A DNA stretch of 64,000 bases from a virus (taxonomy: Duplodnaviria; Caudoviricetes). The position numbers and the translations under genes were made by a program. This document shows, piece by piece, positions 2,141-48,981 of the stretch. Positions within the stretch are counted from its first letter, which is position 1, and each line of letters starts with the position of its first letter. Location of the stretch: IMG/VR virus record IMGVR_UViG_3300031414_000020, positions 7,961 through 71,960 of that record; one strand, given 5' to 3'. Below the pieces are notes generated by a model that saw nothing but the letters and a program-made list of their open reading frames with translations, was not told where the DNA came from and did no database searches.

Positions 2141-3715
2141 GTGGAAATCTATCCGCTGGACAATAGCGACAAATTAACCGGTATTGTTCTTGAGCATAAT
2201 GGTAAAAGGATTGTCTCTGAGGGGAGCATCTTTGACCGCACACCTTTCCCGTCAACGGGCGAGCTGTTCATGGACATCAATGCGTTCTGGCAAACATTGC
2301 CTGACGCGACGCAAGACAAGATCATGCGGATTTATACCGACATCGAAGAAACGTTCTTAACGACGTTCAACGACTTCCGTCTGCATGAGCGTATTGTGGC
2401 ACTGGTGGCCGAACTTTATAGCTGTTGGAGTTATGCGGACCTGTCTCGATTCGTGCGACTGCATTGTAATGTGGTTATACCGAATGAGATTCAAACGGGC
2501 ATGGGTGACTACAGTAGCTCAGACCGAACTTATCTGCGTGACGATTACGTCGGGTTGATTTGTATGGTCACAGCACTGCGTCCAATGATTCCGGTGTGGA
2601 ACCTGTTTGTACGTGAGTCGAAGAAAACTTCAGGCACTCACTTCAAAGAGTTCATGGCCATGGGTTTAATCAACCACACTGAGTTGATTCAAACGCCTGA
2701 CTATGACAAGCTCCAGCGTTATGTTCGCATGAATGTGGACACAACTAAAATTACCATGTCTGCGATCGTTGCAGGTATCGGTAGTGCTGAGCTGGAAGAC
2801 TGGGTATTCGGTGTAGTACTCATTCGAAAGGTATGTGTTGGTGTTGTCATGCACAAACGACCAGATGGTCAGTTGTTCTCAGTGTACAACTCAAGCACAA
2901 ATATCGTTTCAAACATTTTCCGTCAGATCGAAACCACCCTGGCTAGTTTAGACCGTAAGTTCGATGGTCAAGTTCGTAAGAAGCCGGACGGGATGGAATA
3001 TCGTGATGACGATAAGGAATCGCAGGCAGAGAAAATCATTGTTAAGCAGCAGATCAACGATTACAAGTTCCTGCTGGCTGGTAAGTATGCGAAAGCAGTA
3101 ACAAGCGCAAGACAACTGATCGATCCTACGTTACCGGCAGACTTAGTTGATACATGCGTGAACCACCTGCGCCGTAACAACAACTATCTGCCAACAGATG
3201 GACAGATCGCGCTGACGCAGTGGGCAGTTGATGCTGCGTTGAAAGCTCGATTCATTCCAGCGTTAGAACAACCTGAGCGTGTGAACATGATCGGGTTAGC
3301 GCAGGCGTTATATTGGCACTGGGGTTTCTACGACCTGGCGTTATTATTAACAGCTACGCCTTCTGTTATGGATGACGATATGGTATTCGGTACTGAGTCT
3401 CGTAGCCGTGTTACCGTAGAACAATTCCGTATCTTGAAAGAACAGTACCCCTATTTCCACAAACGGGGTGGTGGGAAGAAAGATCTAACGGGAGAACAGC
3501 AGCGTAACGAAAACGCTGCAATGATAGCGATTGAAAAACTCTTTACGCTATTTGACGGATTGCCGTATCACCTCGATGCTCCAAAGGATCTTTTGGCACA
3601 AACAACCATGCGTCCGTATCGCAGCGGTGGTCATCTGATTCCTTCAGACATTCGTATGCAGATTGCGGCATTCATCATCAAACTCAATTATCATAAAGCA
3701 GGAGTACAGGAATAA
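2141..3715 (+). CDS. Non-virion RNAP specificity subunit, phiKZ gp68-like
   Basis: 524 aa; first gene of the block preceding the beta/beta' subunits and SF2 helicase. Call rests on synteny and size. Confidence 0.65.
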   Translation: MEIYPLDNSDKLTGIVLEHNGKRIVSEGSIFDRTPFPSTGELFMDINAFWQTLPDATQDKIMRIYTDIEETFLTTFNDFRLHERIVALVAELYSCWSYADLSRFVRLHCNVVIPNEIQTGMGDYSSSDRTYLRDDYVGLICMVTALRPMIPVWNLFVRESKKTSGTHFKEFMAMGLINHTELIQTPDYDKLQRYVRMNVDTTKITMSAIVAGIGSAELEDWVFGVVLIRKVCVGVVMHKRPDGQLFSVYNSSTNIVSNIFRQIETTLASLDRKFDGQVRKKPDGMEYRDDDKESQAEKIIVKQQINDYKFLLAGKYAKAVTSARQLIDPTLPADLVDTCVNHLRRNNNYLPTDGQIALTQWAVDAALKARFIPALEQPERVNMIGLAQALYWHWGFYDLALLLTATPSVMDDDMVFGTESRSRVTVEQFRILKEQYPYFHKRGGGKKDLTGEQQRNENAAMIAIEKLFTLFDGLPYHLDAPKDLLAQTTMRPYRSGGHLIPSDIRMQIAAFIIKLNYHKAGVQE

Positions 3716-5151
3716 TGTTTATTCGTCGCGTATTGTTTACAGAGACCGGAACCTACAACGACATGTGGGCAGCATCTTACGGTACTCGCGTTAGCGCGGA
3801 TAGCCTGGCTAAACTTCAGCACGCCACCGAACTTGGCGAGAACCTGAGCGTTCCGGCATTATCAGTTGTTGGTTCTGAGATCATGCGTCCGTCAGCGCAG
3901 GTTGAATCCAGCATCGGTATCGTCGGTGGTTGGAACGAACCTAAGTTCCGCTTCATGATGGAAATCGAGCAGACTACCTCTAACGGTAATGTGCTGGTAG
4001 ATATCCTGAGCGGTTACACTGACCACATGGGTATCACCCAAAACAACAACATGGACCCACGCATGATGTTGTTCATTAACAGCATCACGTCAGTAACGAA
4101 GATGGATCGTATCGGACCTAATGGTCAGGTGTCGTCACGTCTGCACGTTCGTGAGTCTAATCAGGTGATGCCTGGTTATTTCAATCCGGGTCGTGAAGTA
4201 AACCAGTTCTATCTGGCACCGCAGGATATCTTTGACGGTATCGGCCTGACAACAGCACTGGGCGGTATTGCTGATGCTCGTGATCTGCGTACCATCGATT
4301 CACGCAACATCGCGCTGGATGGTCCACGTCTGTCTAACCGTGCAAACAACCACAGTGGTAGTTATCTGTCTCGTGTAATGAACGGATACAAAACTGCGTT
4401 GAGTTCCGCGAGTGTGCAGGATGCTAATATGTCTAGCGTTCTCAAGACTGCGAAAGCAACCGTGGCTGACCGCAACCCCTATGACTTAGCGTCACTGGGT
4501 GCGTTGTTGAACGGCACCGACATGTCACATCGCAGTGGCGTGACTTGGGGTGAATTGCTGCGCTTCCGTCCAGACCTGGAGAACGTAACACACGTAGCGT
4601 TCAACCGTGGCATCGCTGTTACTCGTGATACCTTCATCGCACGTCGTGGTGAAAGTGAGAACTGGGACACAGTGTGTAACGAAACTGTTGTAGCACGTAT
4701 GGTAGCAAGTACGTTACCAACACTGATGAATGACGGTAAGTTTACCAAGCTGGTAGTTACCATGTCCAACGACATGCCTAACCCAAACAACGGTACTCCG
4801 TATACCATCATCGTTCACGATGCTCAGAGCTTCGCTAAGATTCTGGCACAGGACGAAAGCTATATGCGTGATGCAGTGCAGGGTGTGTGTCATCGTATTG
4901 CGACAGAACTGATGGCGGGTATTACTTTCGGCAACCAGATCTTGGGCCACCTGGAAGTATACTGTGACCTGCTGGGTGATACTGAAATTAAGGTATCTCT
5001 GAACGGTGGTCCGCTGGTTCCGTATCAGAACCCACAGTGGTGTGATGCTCTCACCACACCAATCGCTACTCTGGACTCTAACAAGCGCAGTGTTATTGCG
5101 CGTGATATCCAGGGCCTGATGGAAAACATCAACACGGTATCTTACCGCTAA
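3715..5151 (+). CDS. picA: Phage-nucleus protein-import factor PicA/Imp1 (phiKZ gp69-like)
   Basis: 478 aa, directly downstream of the gp68-like gene. Call rests on chimallivirus core synteny. Confidence 0.55.
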   Translation: MFIRRVLFTETGTYNDMWAASYGTRVSADSLAKLQHATELGENLSVPALSVVGSEIMRPSAQVESSIGIVGGWNEPKFRFMMEIEQTTSNGNVLVDILSGYTDHMGITQNNNMDPRMMLFINSITSVTKMDRIGPNGQVSSRLHVRESNQVMPGYFNPGREVNQFYLAPQDIFDGIGLTTALGGIADARDLRTIDSRNIALDGPRLSNRANNHSGSYLSRVMNGYKTALSSASVQDANMSSVLKTAKATVADRNPYDLASLGALLNGTDMSHRSGVTWGELLRFRPDLENVTHVAFNRGIAVTRDTFIARRGESENWDTVCNETVVARMVASTLPTLMNDGKFTKLVVTMSNDMPNPNNGTPYTIIVHDAQSFAKILAQDESYMRDAVQGVCHRIATELMAGITFGNQILGHLEVYCDLLGDTEIKVSLNGGPLVPYQNPQWCDALTTPIATLDSNKRSVIARDIQGLMENINTVSYR

Positions 5152-42130: not shown

Positions 42131-43429
42131 ATGACGATCGTCAATAGTGCTGCCGCTTTGACCCGGAAAGATTATCCGGAGTTCGAGCAGACGGTAGGGA
42201 ACAGCTTCGCGAGCAGTTACCCTGATTCCGTCGAAAAAGACGAGACTAACCTGAAGCGTTTAGAGAACGTTTCACAGGGTCTCTTCCAAATTTACGACCA
42301 CGTAGTCAACGATGCCGCTAAAGGCTCTCCAATGACTCCACACGACTCTGCTGTTATTGCGACTACGGTTGCTAACATGACTAGCAGCATCGGTGTAGAG
42401 TCCGCTGTAACGCGTGTGGCCTCACTCGAGTCTATGTATGACCAGCACATCGGTTATATGATGACCCAAGAGTCTCTGGGTAAAACCATTGTCAACACTA
42501 TCAAGGCATTCCTTGAAGCGTTCATGCGACTGTTGGACAAAATCGTTGTCTGGCTGAAGAAGATGTACACCCGTGCTCAAGACAATGCCCGTCCGCTGAT
42601 GCGCGTGATGAACACCATTCACCGCCTAAGCAATGTACCAATCTCCTCGATTAAGTTTACCCCAGCAATGGAAGGTATTCTGGTCGATGGTCAGGTACCG
42701 GCTGAGTGGATGTCTAAGGTTGTTGACACACTGCGCATTTCTTCCACAATGATGGAAGGTCAGACCAAAATGGCCGACTTCGCAAATGACGTACTGTTCG
42801 CTGTGGAGAAGGTAAACTTCCAAACTCCAGAAGCGGCAGTAGCCGAAGTTGAGAAGGTTTGTAAGCGTCGCCCTAAACTGTCACTCGGCAGCAACAAGGC
42901 TCGCGTAGAGCAGGTAGATGGCAAAACCATCGAATGGTCTGAACCGCTGTGCGCTAACTCACTGGCCATTGCGATGAACCCGCAGGGCGACGAAGCGATT
43001 GATTCCGTGAACTACGGCATCGGTCTGGTACATCTGTCCGTGGCCGCTGAGTTTGGTGTTAAAACCAAATACAACGATAAGGAAAACAACGATACTCTGG
43101 TGACGTTGGACCTGAGCGACTACATGCGCCATGAGCGTGTACTGATCAATGAGGTCAATACCAGCAGTCGTACCATCGAACGCATGAATAGTGCAATCGA
43201 TAAACTCCAGGCCGCGCTGAAAGACGTTACTGAACGTTTCCGTAAGCTGGAGAAAGATCCTGAATCCACAACGGAAGCTGTTGAAGCGCTGATGACCTAC
43301 ACTGGTGTTGCACGTAGTGTGGCTTCGGCAGCGGTAGCGTGTTCTCGCTACAACTTCGATATCTACTCAACTGTTGTTGAATCAGCTACGGCCGTGTTCA
43401 ATGCATTCGTCAAAAAGGCCGGGGGTTAA
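42131..43429 (+). CDS. Internal head protein paralog
   Basis: ASLES and TQES sites followed by an amphipathic helix. Confidence 0.7.
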   Translation: MTIVNSAAALTRKDYPEFEQTVGNSFASSYPDSVEKDETNLKRLENVSQGLFQIYDHVVNDAAKGSPMTPHDSAVIATTVANMTSSIGVESAVTRVASLESMYDQHIGYMMTQESLGKTIVNTIKAFLEAFMRLLDKIVVWLKKMYTRAQDNARPLMRVMNTIHRLSNVPISSIKFTPAMEGILVDGQVPAEWMSKVVDTLRISSTMMEGQTKMADFANDVLFAVEKVNFQTPEAAVAEVEKVCKRRPKLSLGSNKARVEQVDGKTIEWSEPLCANSLAIAMNPQGDEAIDSVNYGIGLVHLSVAAEFGVKTKYNDKENNDTLVTLDLSDYMRHERVLINEVNTSSRTIERMNSAIDKLQAALKDVTERFRKLEKDPESTTEAVEALMTYTGVARSVASAAVACSRYNFDIYSTVVESATAVFNAFVKKAGG

Positions 43430-43431
43430 CA

Positions 43432-44667
43432 ATGTCTAAGAAATCCATGCTCAACATTTCAGTTGAGTCTGTTGGCTCCGATGCTGACGCTTACGACCTG
43501 GCTAGCGCTGCTACGCCCAATGCGGTAGTTGTTCCAGACGTCGTGGTTGACGCACCTGTAATGCCGGTATGTCAACCACAAGCAGCAGACCTTGCTCGTC
43601 TGAAGGCTATTGCTGACGCTATCGACAACGTATCCGATACCCTGGGTGCTCGTGTTGCTCAAATCGGTATTGCTACCGTGGGCGTTAACACTGTTGTTTC
43701 TACTGAAGCAATCAGTCTGGCCAGTATTGGTGCTACCGTGAAGAAATACGTGATGATGGCAATCGACTTCATCAAGCGTTTCGTTGTAGCGGTAATTAAC
43801 TATGGTGCTCGCTATATTGAGCGTCTGCGTTACAACCGTAAAGAGATGGCTGATCTCCTGCGTGACATTACCAACTTCATGCGTGCACGTCGCGGTGATA
43901 CCTTTACTATCGAAGGTACCTCTGTAACGTTGCTGCAACTGAACGGTGCTGTCCCGGCTGGTCCGGCAGAGCTGGCTCGTGGCTTCAATGAATTCCGTCG
44001 TGATATCGATGGTCCTTACATTGAGTGGCTGAAAGGCGCTACTGCTAAGGTGCAGGAAATCTCTGCTGCCATGGCTTCGATCTTTAAGTCCAACAACCTG
44101 CTGTCTGCTGACGCCGGTCTGTTCACCGCACTCGAGTCCATCAAATGTCCTGCCGCCCCTTCTGGCTGGAAGCGCGATGTGAGTGTTGGTAATGGACTGT
44201 GGTCCTACGTGCCTAAGGTACAATCCTGGGGTAATGTCCGCGTTAACGTTGTGGGTGATGAAACCATCAATGCTGGCGATGTCAGCGCCTCAATGGTAAC
44301 TCCGTTCGATGCGCCGGATGCAGCAAGTTCAATCACCATCACTGGTGACATGCTTGCAGAATACGCCAAGTTGGGAATGGGTGTGGTTGACCTCCAGGTT
44401 AATCTGGCTGATCCATACGACGCGGTGCGTCAGTTGTCTAAGCGCATGCTGGATAGCTATACCACCAAGTTCGTTGGTATCGATGATAAAGGTCTGACAC
44501 CTACCGACCAGCAGACCATCGCTGCGCGTAACTCGCAGATCAATGACGCAATGGGCTATCTGTCCTTCGTCATGTCCTCTACGGCTAACTACATGTCTTA
44601 CCTGACTGCTCTGCGTGGCGCAATCCATCAGACGCTGACAGCTGTCATTAGTCCGGCCGAAGTGTAA
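43432..44667 (+). CDS. Internal head protein paralog
   Basis: ISVES and VSTEA sites followed by an amphipathic helix. Confidence 0.7.
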   Translation: MSKKSMLNISVESVGSDADAYDLASAATPNAVVVPDVVVDAPVMPVCQPQAADLARLKAIADAIDNVSDTLGARVAQIGIATVGVNTVVSTEAISLASIGATVKKYVMMAIDFIKRFVVAVINYGARYIERLRYNRKEMADLLRDITNFMRARRGDTFTIEGTSVTLLQLNGAVPAGPAELARGFNEFRRDIDGPYIEWLKGATAKVQEISAAMASIFKSNNLLSADAGLFTALESIKCPAAPSGWKRDVSVGNGLWSYVPKVQSWGNVRVNVVGDETINAGDVSASMVTPFDAPDAASSITITGDMLAEYAKLGMGVVDLQVNLADPYDAVRQLSKRMLDSYTTKFVGIDDKGLTPTDQQTIAARNSQINDAMGYLSFVMSSTANYMSYLTALRGAIHQTLTAVISPAEV

Positions 44668-44671
44668 TACT

Positions 44672-44701
44672 AGAGGGGTCCATGTGACCCCTCTTTTTAT
44701 T
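44672..44701 (+). terminator. Intrinsic terminator
   Basis: AGAGGGGTC-CATGT-GACCCCTCT followed by TTTT. Confidence 0.7.
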
Positions 44702-44714
44702 CTGGAGCTTTATT

Positions 44715-46067
44715 ATGGATGGTTTAGAAAACCGCAATGCGGAGCTAGACGTTCCACCGGGTGTAGTGCCCACTGATCCCGAGAATCTCGTGACGGACAA
44801 CACCCAAGGGTTAGATGATTCTATTGTCGTCCCTATTGTGCGTGTGGATACTGACGCCATTGACCTGCGTGAACTCAACGGACAGCTGGATCGTGAATTG
44901 GTTGCCGCACAAGAGATGCTGGCGCGTTATATCTCGCTGGAGTCTTGGGCTACGGTAGTCGATGCATACGACGCCCCATTAACGCCACAAATGCAAATCG
45001 GCACAGAGTTGCTGCTGAACCTTACCACCCAACGGGCCAACATTAAAAGCGAAGACGTTATTCCTTCGTTGGAGTCGTTTACCGATGGTAAGGGTGTGGC
45101 TGGTGCACTGCGTGTTTATGCTAAGAAACTATTGGCTGCGCTGATTCGCCTGTGTGAAAAGATCACGGCGATGTTCGAAAAGATCTACGAGATCCTAACG
45201 TCTCGTTGTCGTGCTAGCCGTATCCAGATTACTGCCATTAAAGTGAAAATGGGTATTGCTAAAGGTGGTCGTCTCAAAACACGTCGTCTGGGTATGGGTC
45301 GCTACAGTCGCTTCTTAGCTATTCGCGGAATGGCAATCCAAACACCGTCTGAGCTGTATGCTGGCTTGGGTGCTGTTGGTAAGCTGGCCGACGATTCAAT
45401 AGTCTCCCATTTAAACGGACTACTATGGGTTGGTGATGAAGTCATCAAGATCACTAAGTCTGAAAGCTTCCCTAATCCTCGCGCTACTGAAGCACGGTTA
45501 ACACGCGCTTTCGCCGAGTTGGCTAAAACCAGTTTGGCTGGCGACTGTACTCGTCAAGTTGGTAGCGACCCTCGCTTCCAAAGTAAAGGTTACGTTACCA
45601 CTGCGTCAGAGAACCTTATTGGCAATCGCACTCTCTATCTTACTAAACCGCGCGACGGCAGTGAGATTGCTGATACGTTTGGCACCGTGTCCTTTGAGTT
45701 TACTCAGACTCGTCTGGGTGATGAGGACTATGAGCCAAAAGCTGGTTTAACGATGGAGACCTGTGACCTGTCGTATGCAAAGCGTCTGTTGGAGCTTTGT
45801 GAGAAATACATCGGTGTTATTGAACGCTTCGATAGTAGTGATCCGGCTAAACGCCTGGTGGCATCAATGTCCAAGATTCATACCGCTGTAAGCGAACGTG
45901 CTAAACAGGGTGGCTTGGATTCCATCAATGCGGAGTTACTCTATTCTGCTTCGGTCGCTTTCTCTGCTGCCGCAACTTCACCAATTCGTGACATCATGGG
46001 ACATCTGGCTACAGCCATTGATGCTACCCTCGACGTCATTAGTCGTTCGCTTTCTGCTTACGATTAA
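44715..46067 (+). CDS. Internal head protein paralog
   Basis: ISLES and PSLES sites followed by an amphipathic helix. Confidence 0.7.
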   Translation: MDGLENRNAELDVPPGVVPTDPENLVTDNTQGLDDSIVVPIVRVDTDAIDLRELNGQLDRELVAAQEMLARYISLESWATVVDAYDAPLTPQMQIGTELLLNLTTQRANIKSEDVIPSLESFTDGKGVAGALRVYAKKLLAALIRLCEKITAMFEKIYEILTSRCRASRIQITAIKVKMGIAKGGRLKTRRLGMGRYSRFLAIRGMAIQTPSELYAGLGAVGKLADDSIVSHLNGLLWVGDEVIKITKSESFPNPRATEARLTRAFAELAKTSLAGDCTRQVGSDPRFQSKGYVTTASENLIGNRTLYLTKPRDGSEIADTFGTVSFEFTQTRLGDEDYEPKAGLTMETCDLSYAKRLLELCEKYIGVIERFDSSDPAKRLVASMSKIHTAVSERAKQGGLDSINAELLYSASVAFSAAATSPIRDIMGHLATAIDATLDVISRSLSAYD

Positions 46068-46090
46068 ATTTTACACAATGAGGCAAAGGT

Positions 46091-46480
46091 ATGATTGAAT
46101 ATGACGACCTGAAAGACCCGGGCTATAAAACGGTTAAGGTTGAAGGGGTAGAACCTGAGTTTGATTCTCAGTTCCTTCCTGATGACCCAATCAACACCGC
46201 CGTGTCTACTTTCGTCTTTAGCGGAATTGGACAGGATGAAGCTCAACGTGTCAAACTGAATGTCCAGACGACTGAGTTTGCACAAGCAGGCTTTAATGGC
46301 GTTCCACCTGAGTCGGTACTGTTGGCGATGTTGGAGCACTACAAAGGCTTGCAAGAGTCTAATCTCCGTTGCAATGAGTTCGCGATGGTGGTGTGTCAAC
46401 TCACCGATATTATCTCGGTGCTTAAAGGTCGTAATGACCTGCGTGCTTACAAAGGTACGTACGGTACAACGAATCCATAA
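46091..46480 (+). CDS. Divergent Tad1-family (anti-Thoeris/anti-CBASS) nucleotide-signal sponge candidate
   Basis: The C-terminal 75 aa align by eye, with essentially no gaps, to the recalled Tad1 core: Q...GV...LL...Q...E.A...RxxxR...GT. Confidence 0.6.
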   Translation: MIEYDDLKDPGYKTVKVEGVEPEFDSQFLPDDPINTAVSTFVFSGIGQDEAQRVKLNVQTTEFAQAGFNGVPPESVLLAMLEHYKGLQESNLRCNEFAMVVCQLTDIISVLKGRNDLRAYKGTYGTTNP

Positions 46481-46495
46481 CCAAAGAGAGAACCT

Positions 46496-47338
46496 ATGCG
46501 TTTACAATCCCATGAAGTTAAAGTACTCGACGACGAAAAAGCTAAAGAACTGGGCGTGGTCAACTTCGAGCTGGCTCGCGGTGACAGTACTATTGCTCTG
46601 CGTGTGGTTAATGATTTCAGCAGCGCAGTTGAAAGTGAAGAAGGGGTAGTGAGCGTCGGTACTCTGATTGATGTTCTGTATCGCACAATGCGTCAGGGTT
46701 TCCCTGTTCCAGCTACTCATGCTGCGGCATGGCGTGCAATCAGTCAAAACGTCAACAACTGTAAAGAAGCTCACAACTTCAGTCAGGTGCAGGCCAGTAT
46801 CGAATCAGCAGAGATCGGTAAGTATGATGTAGAGTTCCACATCGCTAACCCGAACCTGTCTATCGAAGGCCGCACTGAACCGAAAACCATCCGTGTTGCC
46901 GGTGACGCCCTGACCATCACCAGTTACCGTGAGCTGAGCAATCGTCTGCAACAGTATCGCCATACGCTGGTCATGAACGACAACACCCTGGAAGCCCATC
47001 TGTATGTTTCTCCAGAAACCTTCGCTGCTGCGAACGAACTGGTTACAGCAATGACTACCGAAGAAGGCGTATTCACCGTTGTTATCGCTAACGGTGATAA
47101 AGTCGTATATGCGCCGGTTGTTCCGGCTTACCTGGTTGCTGACTCAGGCACACTGATGAAAGCAATTGAAACTGCGACCTCAACTACGCCGTATCCGCCA
47201 GTTGAGTTCCTCAAAGGTAACATCATTCACGTCACCACTGATCGCGATTTCGACGCGCTGAACTCTGGTGTACTGATGGCGCTGATGGCGCTTGAATCTA
47301 AGTACTATGACAATGGCGAAGCTGCTGTAGTTGAGTAA
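46496..47338 (+). CDS. Hypothetical multidomain protein
   Basis: 280 aa; possible degenerate Tad1-like N-domain plus two similar C-terminal alpha/beta units. Confidence 0.65.
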   Translation: MRLQSHEVKVLDDEKAKELGVVNFELARGDSTIALRVVNDFSSAVESEEGVVSVGTLIDVLYRTMRQGFPVPATHAAAWRAISQNVNNCKEAHNFSQVQASIESAEIGKYDVEFHIANPNLSIEGRTEPKTIRVAGDALTITSYRELSNRLQQYRHTLVMNDNTLEAHLYVSPETFAAANELVTAMTTEEGVFTVVIANGDKVVYAPVVPAYLVADSGTLMKAIETATSTTPYPPVEFLKGNIIHVTTDRDFDALNSGVLMALMALESKYYDNGEAAVVE

Positions 47339-47344
47339 CAAAGT

Positions 47345-47383
47345 CCTCTAGAGAGCTTCGTGCTCTCTAGAGGCTTCTATGCC
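47345..47383 (+). terminator. Intrinsic terminator
   Basis: CCTCTAGAGAGC-TTCGT-GCTCTCTAGAGG followed by CTTCTATGCC. Confidence 0.65.
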
Positions 47384-47436
47384 GTCAGGTCCGATATTAT
47401 GACAAATGCTTACTTTATTTACATGAGGGCGAGACT

Positions 47437-48981
47437 ATGCCTGCTGTAGTTAAAACGATCGCAGAGACCACACAGGCTATCACCAGACCTGTGGTTATGG
47501 GTGCAATAGATCTACTAAAGAAGTACACTGGGATCAAAGAGAGTGTGGTGGTTCAAGTCTTCACTAACTCGAATGCGGCTGCATTGCCGGGTACCCAAAT
47601 CAACGCCGGTGATGGTGCCGACCGGAAGTTCGATGCCCATGAGAAAATCAAAGCAGACTATACGGAAGAGTACGATGACACCGATGCGTTGACAGCACCA
47701 ACCAACTGGCGTGATAACGTCCCTATCTTCCTGGATCAGCCGTTACAGGTATTCCTGCGTCCTGTGTATGTTAAGGCCAAGGTAGACATCAGGATGGAGT
47801 ATCGCTTCACTAACGAAGCAGCAGCACAGCGCTGGTTAGCGGATATCCGTACGTACGTCAGTATGGAGCGCGCAGAATTACCAATGGAGTTGGAATACAG
47901 CTACCAGATACCCACGGCAGAACTTGTTGTCCTAGCGCACATCCACGAACTCCGTGAAAACGTGGCTGGATATAACCAAACCCTTACGGAATGGTTCCGT
48001 GAGAAGTTTGATGATCGCGTTACTGTGCAAAAGACTAACTCTGAGAAAGGGCATCAGTTTAGTGTGCAAGAACGTCAAGGCGGTATCCTGGGTTGGTTTG
48101 ACTTTACCATGCCACCACAACCTGAACGCAATGACACCAACGGTACCTGGATTGCGCAGTTCGGTTTTACGTTCGTCTACGACAAACCTATCTCGGTTAT
48201 GTTGAACTATCCGGTCATGGTTCACAATCAGATTGTGGACAGTAAGTACCGTAAAGATCCAACGCCGTATACGCTGACCGAACAGCGCCTGATGAACATC
48301 TCACGCAGGGCATATGAGAAACTCCCGTTTACTCGTCCCCGTGAATGGCAGCATCCCATCGGTGGTATCGTTGTCCCGTCTTACGACGACTGGTTGCCAA
48401 CTAAGTTCGACTCGGCCACAACAAGCGTGTTCACCACGATCATTATGGTTGACAGCGAAGACCCGTATCAGATCGCTAACTTACAGGAAATGGGTAACTG
48501 GGAAATTAACCCTATCTTGCTGGAGTGGGTACGTGAGAATAAGAAGAGCGTATTCAAACTGAATATGTCTCCTTTCGTCATCGAGTTTTACTCAGAGAAC
48601 ACTCGCTGGACACCTGAAGCACTTTACCTTGATGAATCGCTTAACCTGCGCTCTGTAACGCCTCTCAGTGAACGCCAACGCCATCACCTGAGATTCGCTA
48701 TGGTCTCAGACCTATCGGTGCTCTCAGAGCCGTATGCGCGTATTTTGCGCAACTCTGGTAAAGTGTGTATTGAAGTCTTAAAGATTGTCGACCCGACATT
48801 AGAGCCTCGTGGTTTTATACCACGACTGCGTGGGGGTAAGATGGTCGCTCCACTGGATTGGTCTAAGGCAGTAAGTGCGATAGGCACAACAGACCCAACC
48901 TGGAAAACCCGCCCCGAATATCGTCGAATGACGGTCGGACAGTTTATCTTCTATATCGGAGATCCAAATGCCAACATTTGA
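47437..48981 (+). CDS. Virion structural (tail/neck-region) protein
   Basis: 514 aa; first of a four-gene overlapping block matching phiKZ gp98-101-like synteny. Confidence 0.55.
   Translation: MPAVVKTIAETTQAITRPVVMGAIDLLKKYTGIKESVVVQVFTNSNAAALPGTQINAGDGADRKFDAHEKIKADYTEEYDDTDALTAPTNWRDNVPIFLDQPLQVFLRPVYVKAKVDIRMEYRFTNEAAAQRWLADIRTYVSMERAELPMELEYSYQIPTAELVVLAHIHELRENVAGYNQTLTEWFREKFDDRVTVQKTNSEKGHQFSVQERQGGILGWFDFTMPPQPERNDTNGTWIAQFGFTFVYDKPISVMLNYPVMVHNQIVDSKYRKDPTPYTLTEQRLMNISRRAYEKLPFTRPREWQHPIGGIVVPSYDDWLPTKFDSATTSVFTTIIMVDSEDPYQIANLQEMGNWEINPILLEWVRENKKSVFKLNMSPFVIEFYSENTRWTPEALYLDESLNLRSVTPLSERQRHHLRFAMVSDLSVLSEPYARILRNSGKVCIEVLKIVDPTLEPRGFIPRLRGGKMVAPLDWSKAVSAIGTTDPTWKTRPEYRRMTVGQFIFYIGDPNANI

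Follow-up and report, generated by a model that had tools for sequence, protein, structure and literature searches.

Some immune messengers diffuse and are not blocked by the phage nucleus; signal sponges are the means by which nucleus-forming phages can handle them. The roles of individual residues in such a sponge are taken here from two structural papers on the Tad1 proteins CbTad1 and CmTad1, including bioRxiv 10.1101/2022.05.03.490397. According to that preprint N92 of CbTad1 reads the Hoogsteen edge of adenine. R109 and R113 of CbTad1 hold the phosphates in a clamp and stack against the base, the backbone NH of G55 contacts gcADPR, and R90 and T97 lie at the interface of the trimer of dimers. 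In the F82A/N92A double mutant of CbTad1 the binding of gcADPR and of 2',3'-cGAMP is severely reduced in both cases. Across Tad1 orthologs the CDN/gcADPR site is substituted in 12% and the CTN site in 6% (Li et al. preprint).

A member of the family is present in phiKZ. Its gp184 is a minor capsid protein that lies at the vertices, on the inside of the capsid, and is cleaved by the head protease (PMC11297242). A transposon-mutagenesis preprint (10.1101/2025.11.23.690004) lists 'Tad1, gp184' as non-essential in phiKZ, and describes its N-terminus as wedged in the capsid, with the C-terminus freed by the protease and injected. According to a 2026 review (PMC13282480, citing Li et al. 2024), phiKZ injects Tad1, which blocks CBASS and Thoeris; the preprint version of Li et al. 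2024 makes no mention of phiKZ, and for gp184 as a functional, injected Tad1 the sources are the two citing papers. The review describes phiKZ Tad1 as the only anti-defence protein so far described in jumbo phages. A packaged Tad1 of a nucleus-forming jumbo phage is already in the literature (PMC11297242; bioRxiv 10.1101/2025.11.23.690004; PMC13282480). A tblastn search with a gp184-like query shows that 135 phage records encode the Tad1 domain, including many Pseudomonas jumbo phages, 201phi2-1, Phabio, Noxifer, Burkholderia FLC9, Shewanella SXP01 and SPO1-like Bacillus phages. That a nucleus-forming phage should carry Tad1 is thus nothing new in principle; what is new in the locus described below is a pocket that appears to have been rebuilt across a small clade.

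Two observations on the wider family may be added here. Tad1-domain genes of the Bacillus phages Bcp1, Bc431v3 (orf166), BCP8-2, P59 and CM1 are annotated 'putative structural protein', which hints that virion association of Tad1 is perhaps not limited to phiKZ. The 270-kb Shewanella phage SXP01 has a Tad1-like gene of 107 aa (locus L007, 3902-4225) under the erroneous name 'ABC transporter ATPase', a legacy label that PDB 7UAV also bears. The SXP01 protein is very divergent and lies on a long branch, with N92 kept but F82 not.

The window (i.e. the whole 64,000-nt stretch of DNA analysed) belongs to a record that is a 72-kb fragment, estimated to be about 26% complete. The ORF at 3715-5151 (+) is homologous to PicA, the nuclear import factor gp69 of phiKZ (28% identity, E 2e-39); the homolog corresponds to window positions 3721-5133. 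The record also encodes an RNA polymerase beta-like protein and internal head proteins of the phiKZ type. In the complete genome of a related Erwinia phage, chimallin (phiKZ gp54) has a homolog at MW879341 225564-226682 (E 2e-22). The PicA homolog in the record and the chimallin homolog in the Erwinia relative together indicate a chimallivirus-like lineage of the nucleus-forming type. The features of the locus are collected in Table 1.

Table 1. Features at and around the Tad1-family gene, in window coordinates. IP, internal head protein.
Feature	Position	Strand	Description or basis
Terminator-like hairpin	44672..44694	+	9 bp stem and T run; closes the preceding unit, between the second and third IP paralogs
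IP paralog, 450 aa	44715..46067	+	PF12699 phiKZ_IP, E 4e-16; phrog_8282
Spacer, 23 nt	46068..46090	+	Shine-Dalgarno-like GAGG/AAAGG before the ATG
Tad1-family CDS, 129 aa	46091..46480	+	ATG start, stop codon within the coordinates; from ORF list and Tad1 homology
Helix hairpin, residues 73-121	46307..46453	+	Best conserved part; pLDDT 85-96
F97 codon, TTC	46379..46381	+	Aligned to CbTad1 N92
R114 and R118, R-x-x-x-R pair	46430..46444	+	Aligned to CbTad1 R109/R113
C-terminal lid, G122-T-Y124-G125-T126-T-N-P	46454..46477	+	From alignment; lid role from CbTad1 residues 116-122
Orphan, 280 aa, 15 nt downstream	46496..47338	+	No family; position conserved in all relatives
Palindromic hairpin, 12-bp	47345..47373	+	Weak T tail; after the 280-aa gene

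The protein encoded at 46091-46480 has orthologs in four metagenomic clusters, with 71-99% identity; three further representatives, 128-130 aa long, are more distant. In Erwinia phage pEa_SNUABM_54 the ortholog is gene 00008, at about 45-47% identity over the full length. Comparison of the window gene with a 78%-identical ortholog (in L010) gave pN 0.13 and pS 0.72. As pS is near saturation and pN low, the gene is under strong purifying selection. On these comparisons we take ORF 46091-46480 to be a real gene under purifying selection, and the ORFs that overlap it on either strand are by-products. The protein matches phrog_2428 and phrog_23843, both of which are without known function, and megablast of window positions 44000-48000 against the phage collection returned no match.

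The first-pass annotation, which was made by eye, had proposed a divergent Tad1-like sponge, and the amino acid string that it quoted corresponds exactly to residues 55-126 of this ORF. The proposed kinship with Tad1 is borne out both by comparison of sequences and profiles and by comparison of fold (Foldseek). In a phmmer search of all PDB chains with the single sequence, CmTad1 (8kbb) was matched at E 1.9e-4 over residues 56-127 without gaps; phiKZ gp184 (8y6v_I) was the third match and far weaker, at E 0.93. A profile built solely from seven sequences of the protein's own clade matched CmTad1 at E 6.8e-10 and phiKZ gp184 at E 3e-8. Profile-profile alignment of the clade with 24 canonical Tad1 sequences using hhalign gave a probability of 99.6% and E 1e-23. 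In the other direction, a profile of canonical Tad1 sequences only found the window ORF (E 1.3e-19) as the sole match within its record, and the Erwinia phage ortholog (E 4.2e-14) as the sole match in that complete genome. An exhaustive search of 1.8 billion representatives, with the four closest sequences as the query, reached small canonical Tad1-like proteins at whole-library E values of 1e-5 to 1e-3. We conclude that homology of the window protein to Tad1 is secure, and that the protein is an unusually divergent member.

The Pfam model PF24729 (Acb2_Tad1_hairpin) did not match the window protein, even at E values up to 1. It matched nine of 31 aligned homologs, and is carried by all of the best 120 canonical homologs (of roughly 2,000). 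The missing match is a failure of sensitivity of one model, and is outweighed by the profile tests. The four-sequence profile also scored Big_13/Cadherin_4 repeats, in up to nine stretches and with E 1e-13. Here many weak matches to a segment rich in beta structure have probably been added up, and we do not take them as a sign of homology of the N-terminal half (46091-46300, residues 10-75) to giant bacterial Ig-repeat proteins; Big_13 did not match the single window protein.

An AlphaFold2 (AF2) model computed from a mixed alignment has a pLDDT of 81. It comprises four N-terminal strands (residues 2-4, 16-20, 40-46 and 52-58) followed by two long helices (residues 73-88 and 95-121). Foldseek returned Tad1 chains only, with probability 1.00 and TM 0.69-0.80, the remainder having E near 1. 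When the alignment was restricted to the clade the pLDDT was 72, the secondary structure was unchanged and Tad1 chains were again the only matches, with Foldseek probability up to 1.00; the match was local, with a TM of just 0.36, and this model did not reproduce the global Tad1 arrangement. The case for the global fold thus depends in part on the canonical sequences of the mixed alignment. The helix hairpin aligns without gaps to both CmTad1 and phiKZ gp184, and bears L87, C94, N95, E96, F97, C102, V110, R114 and R118.

A maximum-likelihood tree places the window protein and seven relatives, gene 00008 of pEa_SNUABM_54 among them, in a clade with support 100/99, on a long branch of 1.58 changes per column. 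The gp184-like proteins form a separate clade that is equally well supported in the same tree. The residues of the window clade are compared in Table 2 with those of the other homologs. The latter are the best-scoring ones, and so are biased toward canonical sequences.

Table 2. Residues of the Tad1 binding sites in the window protein, in 146 other homologs (best-scoring, hence biased toward canonical sequences) and in the window clade (n=8). Numbering is that of CbTad1 unless stated.
Residue and role	Window protein	Other homologs	Window clade
R109, phosphate clamp, base stacking	R114	R 146/146	R 7/8
R113, phosphate clamp	R118	R 145/146	R 8/8
G120, lid	G125	G 145/146	G 8/8
T121, lid	T126	T 133/146	T 8/8
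N92, adenine Hoogsteen reader	F97	N 146/146	F/Y 8/8
F82, stacks on adenine	L87	F 141/146	L 6, M 1, Y 1
H29, ribose-ribose linkage reader	S39	H 136/146	S 6/8
R78, ribose-ribose linkage reader	H83	R 139/146	H 7/8
L119, lid, sandwiches cGAMP guanine	Y124	E 136, L 6 of 146	Y 8/8
R90, cyclic-trinucleotide site	N95	R 120/146	variable
T97, cyclic-trinucleotide site	C102	T 122/146	variable
W103 of CmTad1, hexamer interface	V110	W 128/146	variable

The first-pass annotation had listed three substitutions, and all are present: V58 replaces F in the FQ motif, F97 replaces N in C-x-E-N, and V110 replaces W. Its suggestion that changed conserved positions may mean a different ligand is sharpened by the comparison in Table 2, above all at the adenine-reading asparagine. 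Of the pocket residues validated by mutation (F82, N92, R109 and R113), the two arginines are kept and the other two are changed. The third linkage reader of CbTad1, N122, corresponds to T127. At about 42% identity the positions invariant across the clade are R118, G122, Y124, G125, T126, Q88, C94, F63 and G67, and its most conserved parts are the lid, the arginine pair and the pocket loop, which precedes helix 1 and contains F63 and G67. The replacement residues are themselves conserved across the clade, pointing to a pocket that has been rebuilt rather than one that has decayed. The pattern fits a pocket that is probably still in use, and decay fits it poorly.

We note one further change that is private to the window protein. 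Residue 61 (46271-46273) is Thr, where the Gly of F-Q-x-G is found in all 30 other aligned homologs, including the closest relatives of the window protein; this is the position of CbTad1 G55.

The gene lies in a block of structural genes. Upstream are three tandem paralogs of the phiKZ_IP family of about 410-450 aa (window 42131-46067, +), of which the two before 44715 are weaker paralogs of the third (a PF12699 match); the first of the three also weakly matches PF25617 (phiKZ gp86, a vertex-binding protein). Every locus of sufficient length has one and the same order: IP (431 aa), a 410-aa protein, IP (450 aa), a 23-nt gap, the Tad1-family gene and an orphan of 271-286 aa, and then proteins of 514 aa, 464 aa (with head-tail joining domains), 197 aa and 456 aa. 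The gene has a fixed place after the IP paralog at five loci, the 23-nt gap being present also in L001, L008, L009 and L010. For the most distant clade member the gap is seen on a contig of 1.1 kb. Relatives share the length of this spacer and also TAAATTTTACA, which spans the upstream stop codon; conserved too is the succession of TACGATTAA then ATTTTACA around the stop codon of the IP paralog. The element TTAAATTTTACA (window 46064-46075) spans that stop codon. Four relatives with 40-80% protein identity retain it, and it may serve as a local signal, such as a promoter, a processing site or a coupling site. As a recurrent promoter it was rejected, with one copy in the 64-kb window, fewer than chance expects. 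No resemblance to a middle-promoter motif of phiKZ is claimed.

A hairpin scan revealed no terminator-like hairpin in the 23-nt gap, as had been stated earlier. The gene had also been placed at the end of a head-protein unit, and here the earlier account has to be corrected, since the 280-aa gene follows before the next hairpin. That hairpin, at 47345-47373, probably marks the end of the unit. With no terminator-like hairpin between those on either side (Table 1), the IP paralog, the Tad1-family gene and the orphan are likely to form a three-gene unit. The hairpin that closes the preceding unit, between the second and third IP paralogs, is a strong one. A scan for sigma-70 promoters was uninformative, with fewer sites than in shuffled sequences, which is no surprise in a phage that has RNA polymerases of its own. 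The 280-aa orphan had no match in Pfam or NCBIfam, a marginal PHROG match (E 0.026) and no usable lead from an Atlas search, and it was rejected as Tad1-like (hhalign probability 0.95%). It is the fastest-evolving gene of the block, with 68% identity to its closest relative and 27-29% to more distant ones. Between relatives, identity is 42-45% for the Tad1-family gene, 39-45% for the IP paralogs and 50-65% for the neck and tail genes; such rates fit an arms-race protein and a head-content protein alike.

In the reading that we favour, the window protein is a minimal, stand-alone member of the Tad1 family that would act as a sponge for a nucleotide signal of host immunity. The ligand would be held in a pocket at the dimer interface, where R114 and R118 would grip its phosphates, and the C-terminal G-T-Y-G-T lid would close over it. 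The parts that give canonical Tad1 its specificity for gcADPR and adenine have been replaced (N92 to F97, F82 to L87, H29 to S39, R78 to H83, and L/E119 to Y124). From these replacements, and from the absence of both the trinucleotide site and the hexamer tryptophan, we infer an altered range of ligands and no binding of trinucleotides. We assign a probability of about 0.55 to the protein being a sponge of altered specificity that does not bind trinucleotides. One possibility is that F97 and Y124 could form two aromatic stacks that hold two bases, e.g. those of a cyclic dinucleotide; this is suggested by the position of L119 in the complex of CbTad1 with cGAMP. Since the gene shares an operon with an IP paralog it is probably made late, and co-expression of the two at that stage is likely.

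A more specific proposal can be made only tentatively, i.e. that the pocket has been re-specified for a signal other than gcADPR, through an aromatic residue in place of the adenine-reading asparagine, a new tyrosine in the lid and smaller residues at the readers of the ribose linkage, and that the protein is delivered or co-expressed with the internal head proteins without the anchor of gp184. Candidate ligands of such a pocket would include a certain cyclic dinucleotide, His-ADPR, N7-cADPR or a new signal of enterobacterial hosts.

These readings have to be set beside three others. The one most easily dismissed is that the resemblance to Tad1 arose by chance, or that the ORF is not a gene. 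Searches of Pfam, NCBIfam and the named PHROGs with the single protein sequence gave no named family, which could be taken in its favour. Yet it is most improbable, and is refuted by the independent profile comparisons (E 1e-10 to 1e-23), the conserved syntenic orthologs, and a pN well below pS. A more substantial alternative is an ordinary Tad1, one that binds gcADPR and/or the cyclic dinucleotides bound by gp184 and CbTad1, blocking Thoeris and CBASS. The fold, the arginine pair and the lid are all retained, and the ligand spectra of tested homologs differ (Li et al. preprint). Moreover gp184, which is cited as functional, is likewise without H29, R78, N122 and the two residues of the trinucleotide site, so that on this account those positions are not essential. 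Against this, gp184 has N92 and an aromatic residue at F82 and the window protein has neither, and the double mutation of these two positions impairs CbTad1. We consider an ordinary Tad1 unlikely.

It is also conceivable that the protein has the Tad1 fold but no longer binds a signal, having some other role as a virion, internal-head or ejected protein. Loss of binding is possible because two of the four validated pocket residues are changed, including an asparagine that is otherwise invariant. The gene is fixed within the transcription unit of an internal head protein in all relatives, and its rate of evolution is close to that of the IP paralogs; gp184 is itself a capsid component, and the Bacillus phage annotations noted above are in keeping with a structural role. 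Against this, the N-terminal anchor of gp184 is missing and no homolog of it was found, and the part of gp184 that is described as wedged into the capsid is its N-terminus rather than its Tad1 domain. In addition, conservation is greatest in the lid, the arginine pair and the pocket loop, as a ligand site predicts. We regard this explanation as unlikely too, and return to a sponge of altered specificity as the preferred reading.

The interest of the locus rests on the clade-wide replacement of the asparagine and on the anchor-less arrangement linked to an internal head protein. It represents a second, independent lineage of jumbo phages with Tad1, and one in which the adenine-reading asparagine has been replaced, so providing a natural experiment on the specificity of the pocket. 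The window clade might point to a signal outside the coverage of canonical Tad1. A Tad1 without an anchor would show whether the Tad1 of a jumbo phage needs to be anchored to the capsid to be useful.

Of the described sponges, Acb2 is related to the window protein by a helix-hairpin domain that is grouped with Tad1 in PF24729, and by the sponge principle. It lacks the N-terminal sheet of Tad1, and no direct match of sequence or fold between the window protein and Acb2 was obtained. CbTad1 and CmTad1 (PDB 7UAV, 7UAW, 8SMD and 8KBB-8KBH) are of the same size as the window protein, about 120-130 aa, and have the N-terminal antiparallel sheet and two-helix hairpin that are modelled for it. They share with it the Q of the FQ motif, G-x-N-G, G-x-Q, C-x-E, R-x-x-x-R and G-x-x-G-T. 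They differ in that identity is about 22-25%, and in that the window gene lies in a structural unit of a jumbo phage.

In phiKZ gp184, as here, a Tad1 domain is encoded by a nucleus-forming jumbo phage, in a gene that lies among late and structural genes, and both proteins lack the trinucleotide-site residues and the hexamer tryptophan. At the positions of H29, R78 and N122 gp184 has K, L and Y, where the window protein has S39, H83 and T127. The pockets diverge at N92, which gp184 retains and which is Phe or Tyr in the window clade, and at F82, which is Tyr in gp184 and Leu in six of the eight clade members. Gp184 is a protein of 230 aa with its Tad1 domain at 113-228, whereas the window protein is the domain alone, without the capsid-wedged N-terminal part of roughly 110 residues that the head protease removes. 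A search with gp184 residues 1-110 found no match in the window's record or the complete Erwinia genome, which is weak evidence, and a separate gene for the anchor was sought in both and rejected. The settings differ too. The loci of phiKZ gp184 and 201phi2-1 gp280 follow the tail lysin (gp181-183 in phiKZ), while the window gene follows internal-head-protein paralogs and precedes the head-tail joining genes. The ortholog in a cultured phage, gene 00008 of pEa_SNUABM_54 (QXO10834.1, 'hypothetical protein'), has the same 23-nt spacing, gene order and pocket substitutions. The practical value of the gene is modest, as one more candidate for a ligand panel; pEa_SNUABM_54 is a phage in culture with a complete genome of 272.6 kb, and so offers a practical handle for experiments.
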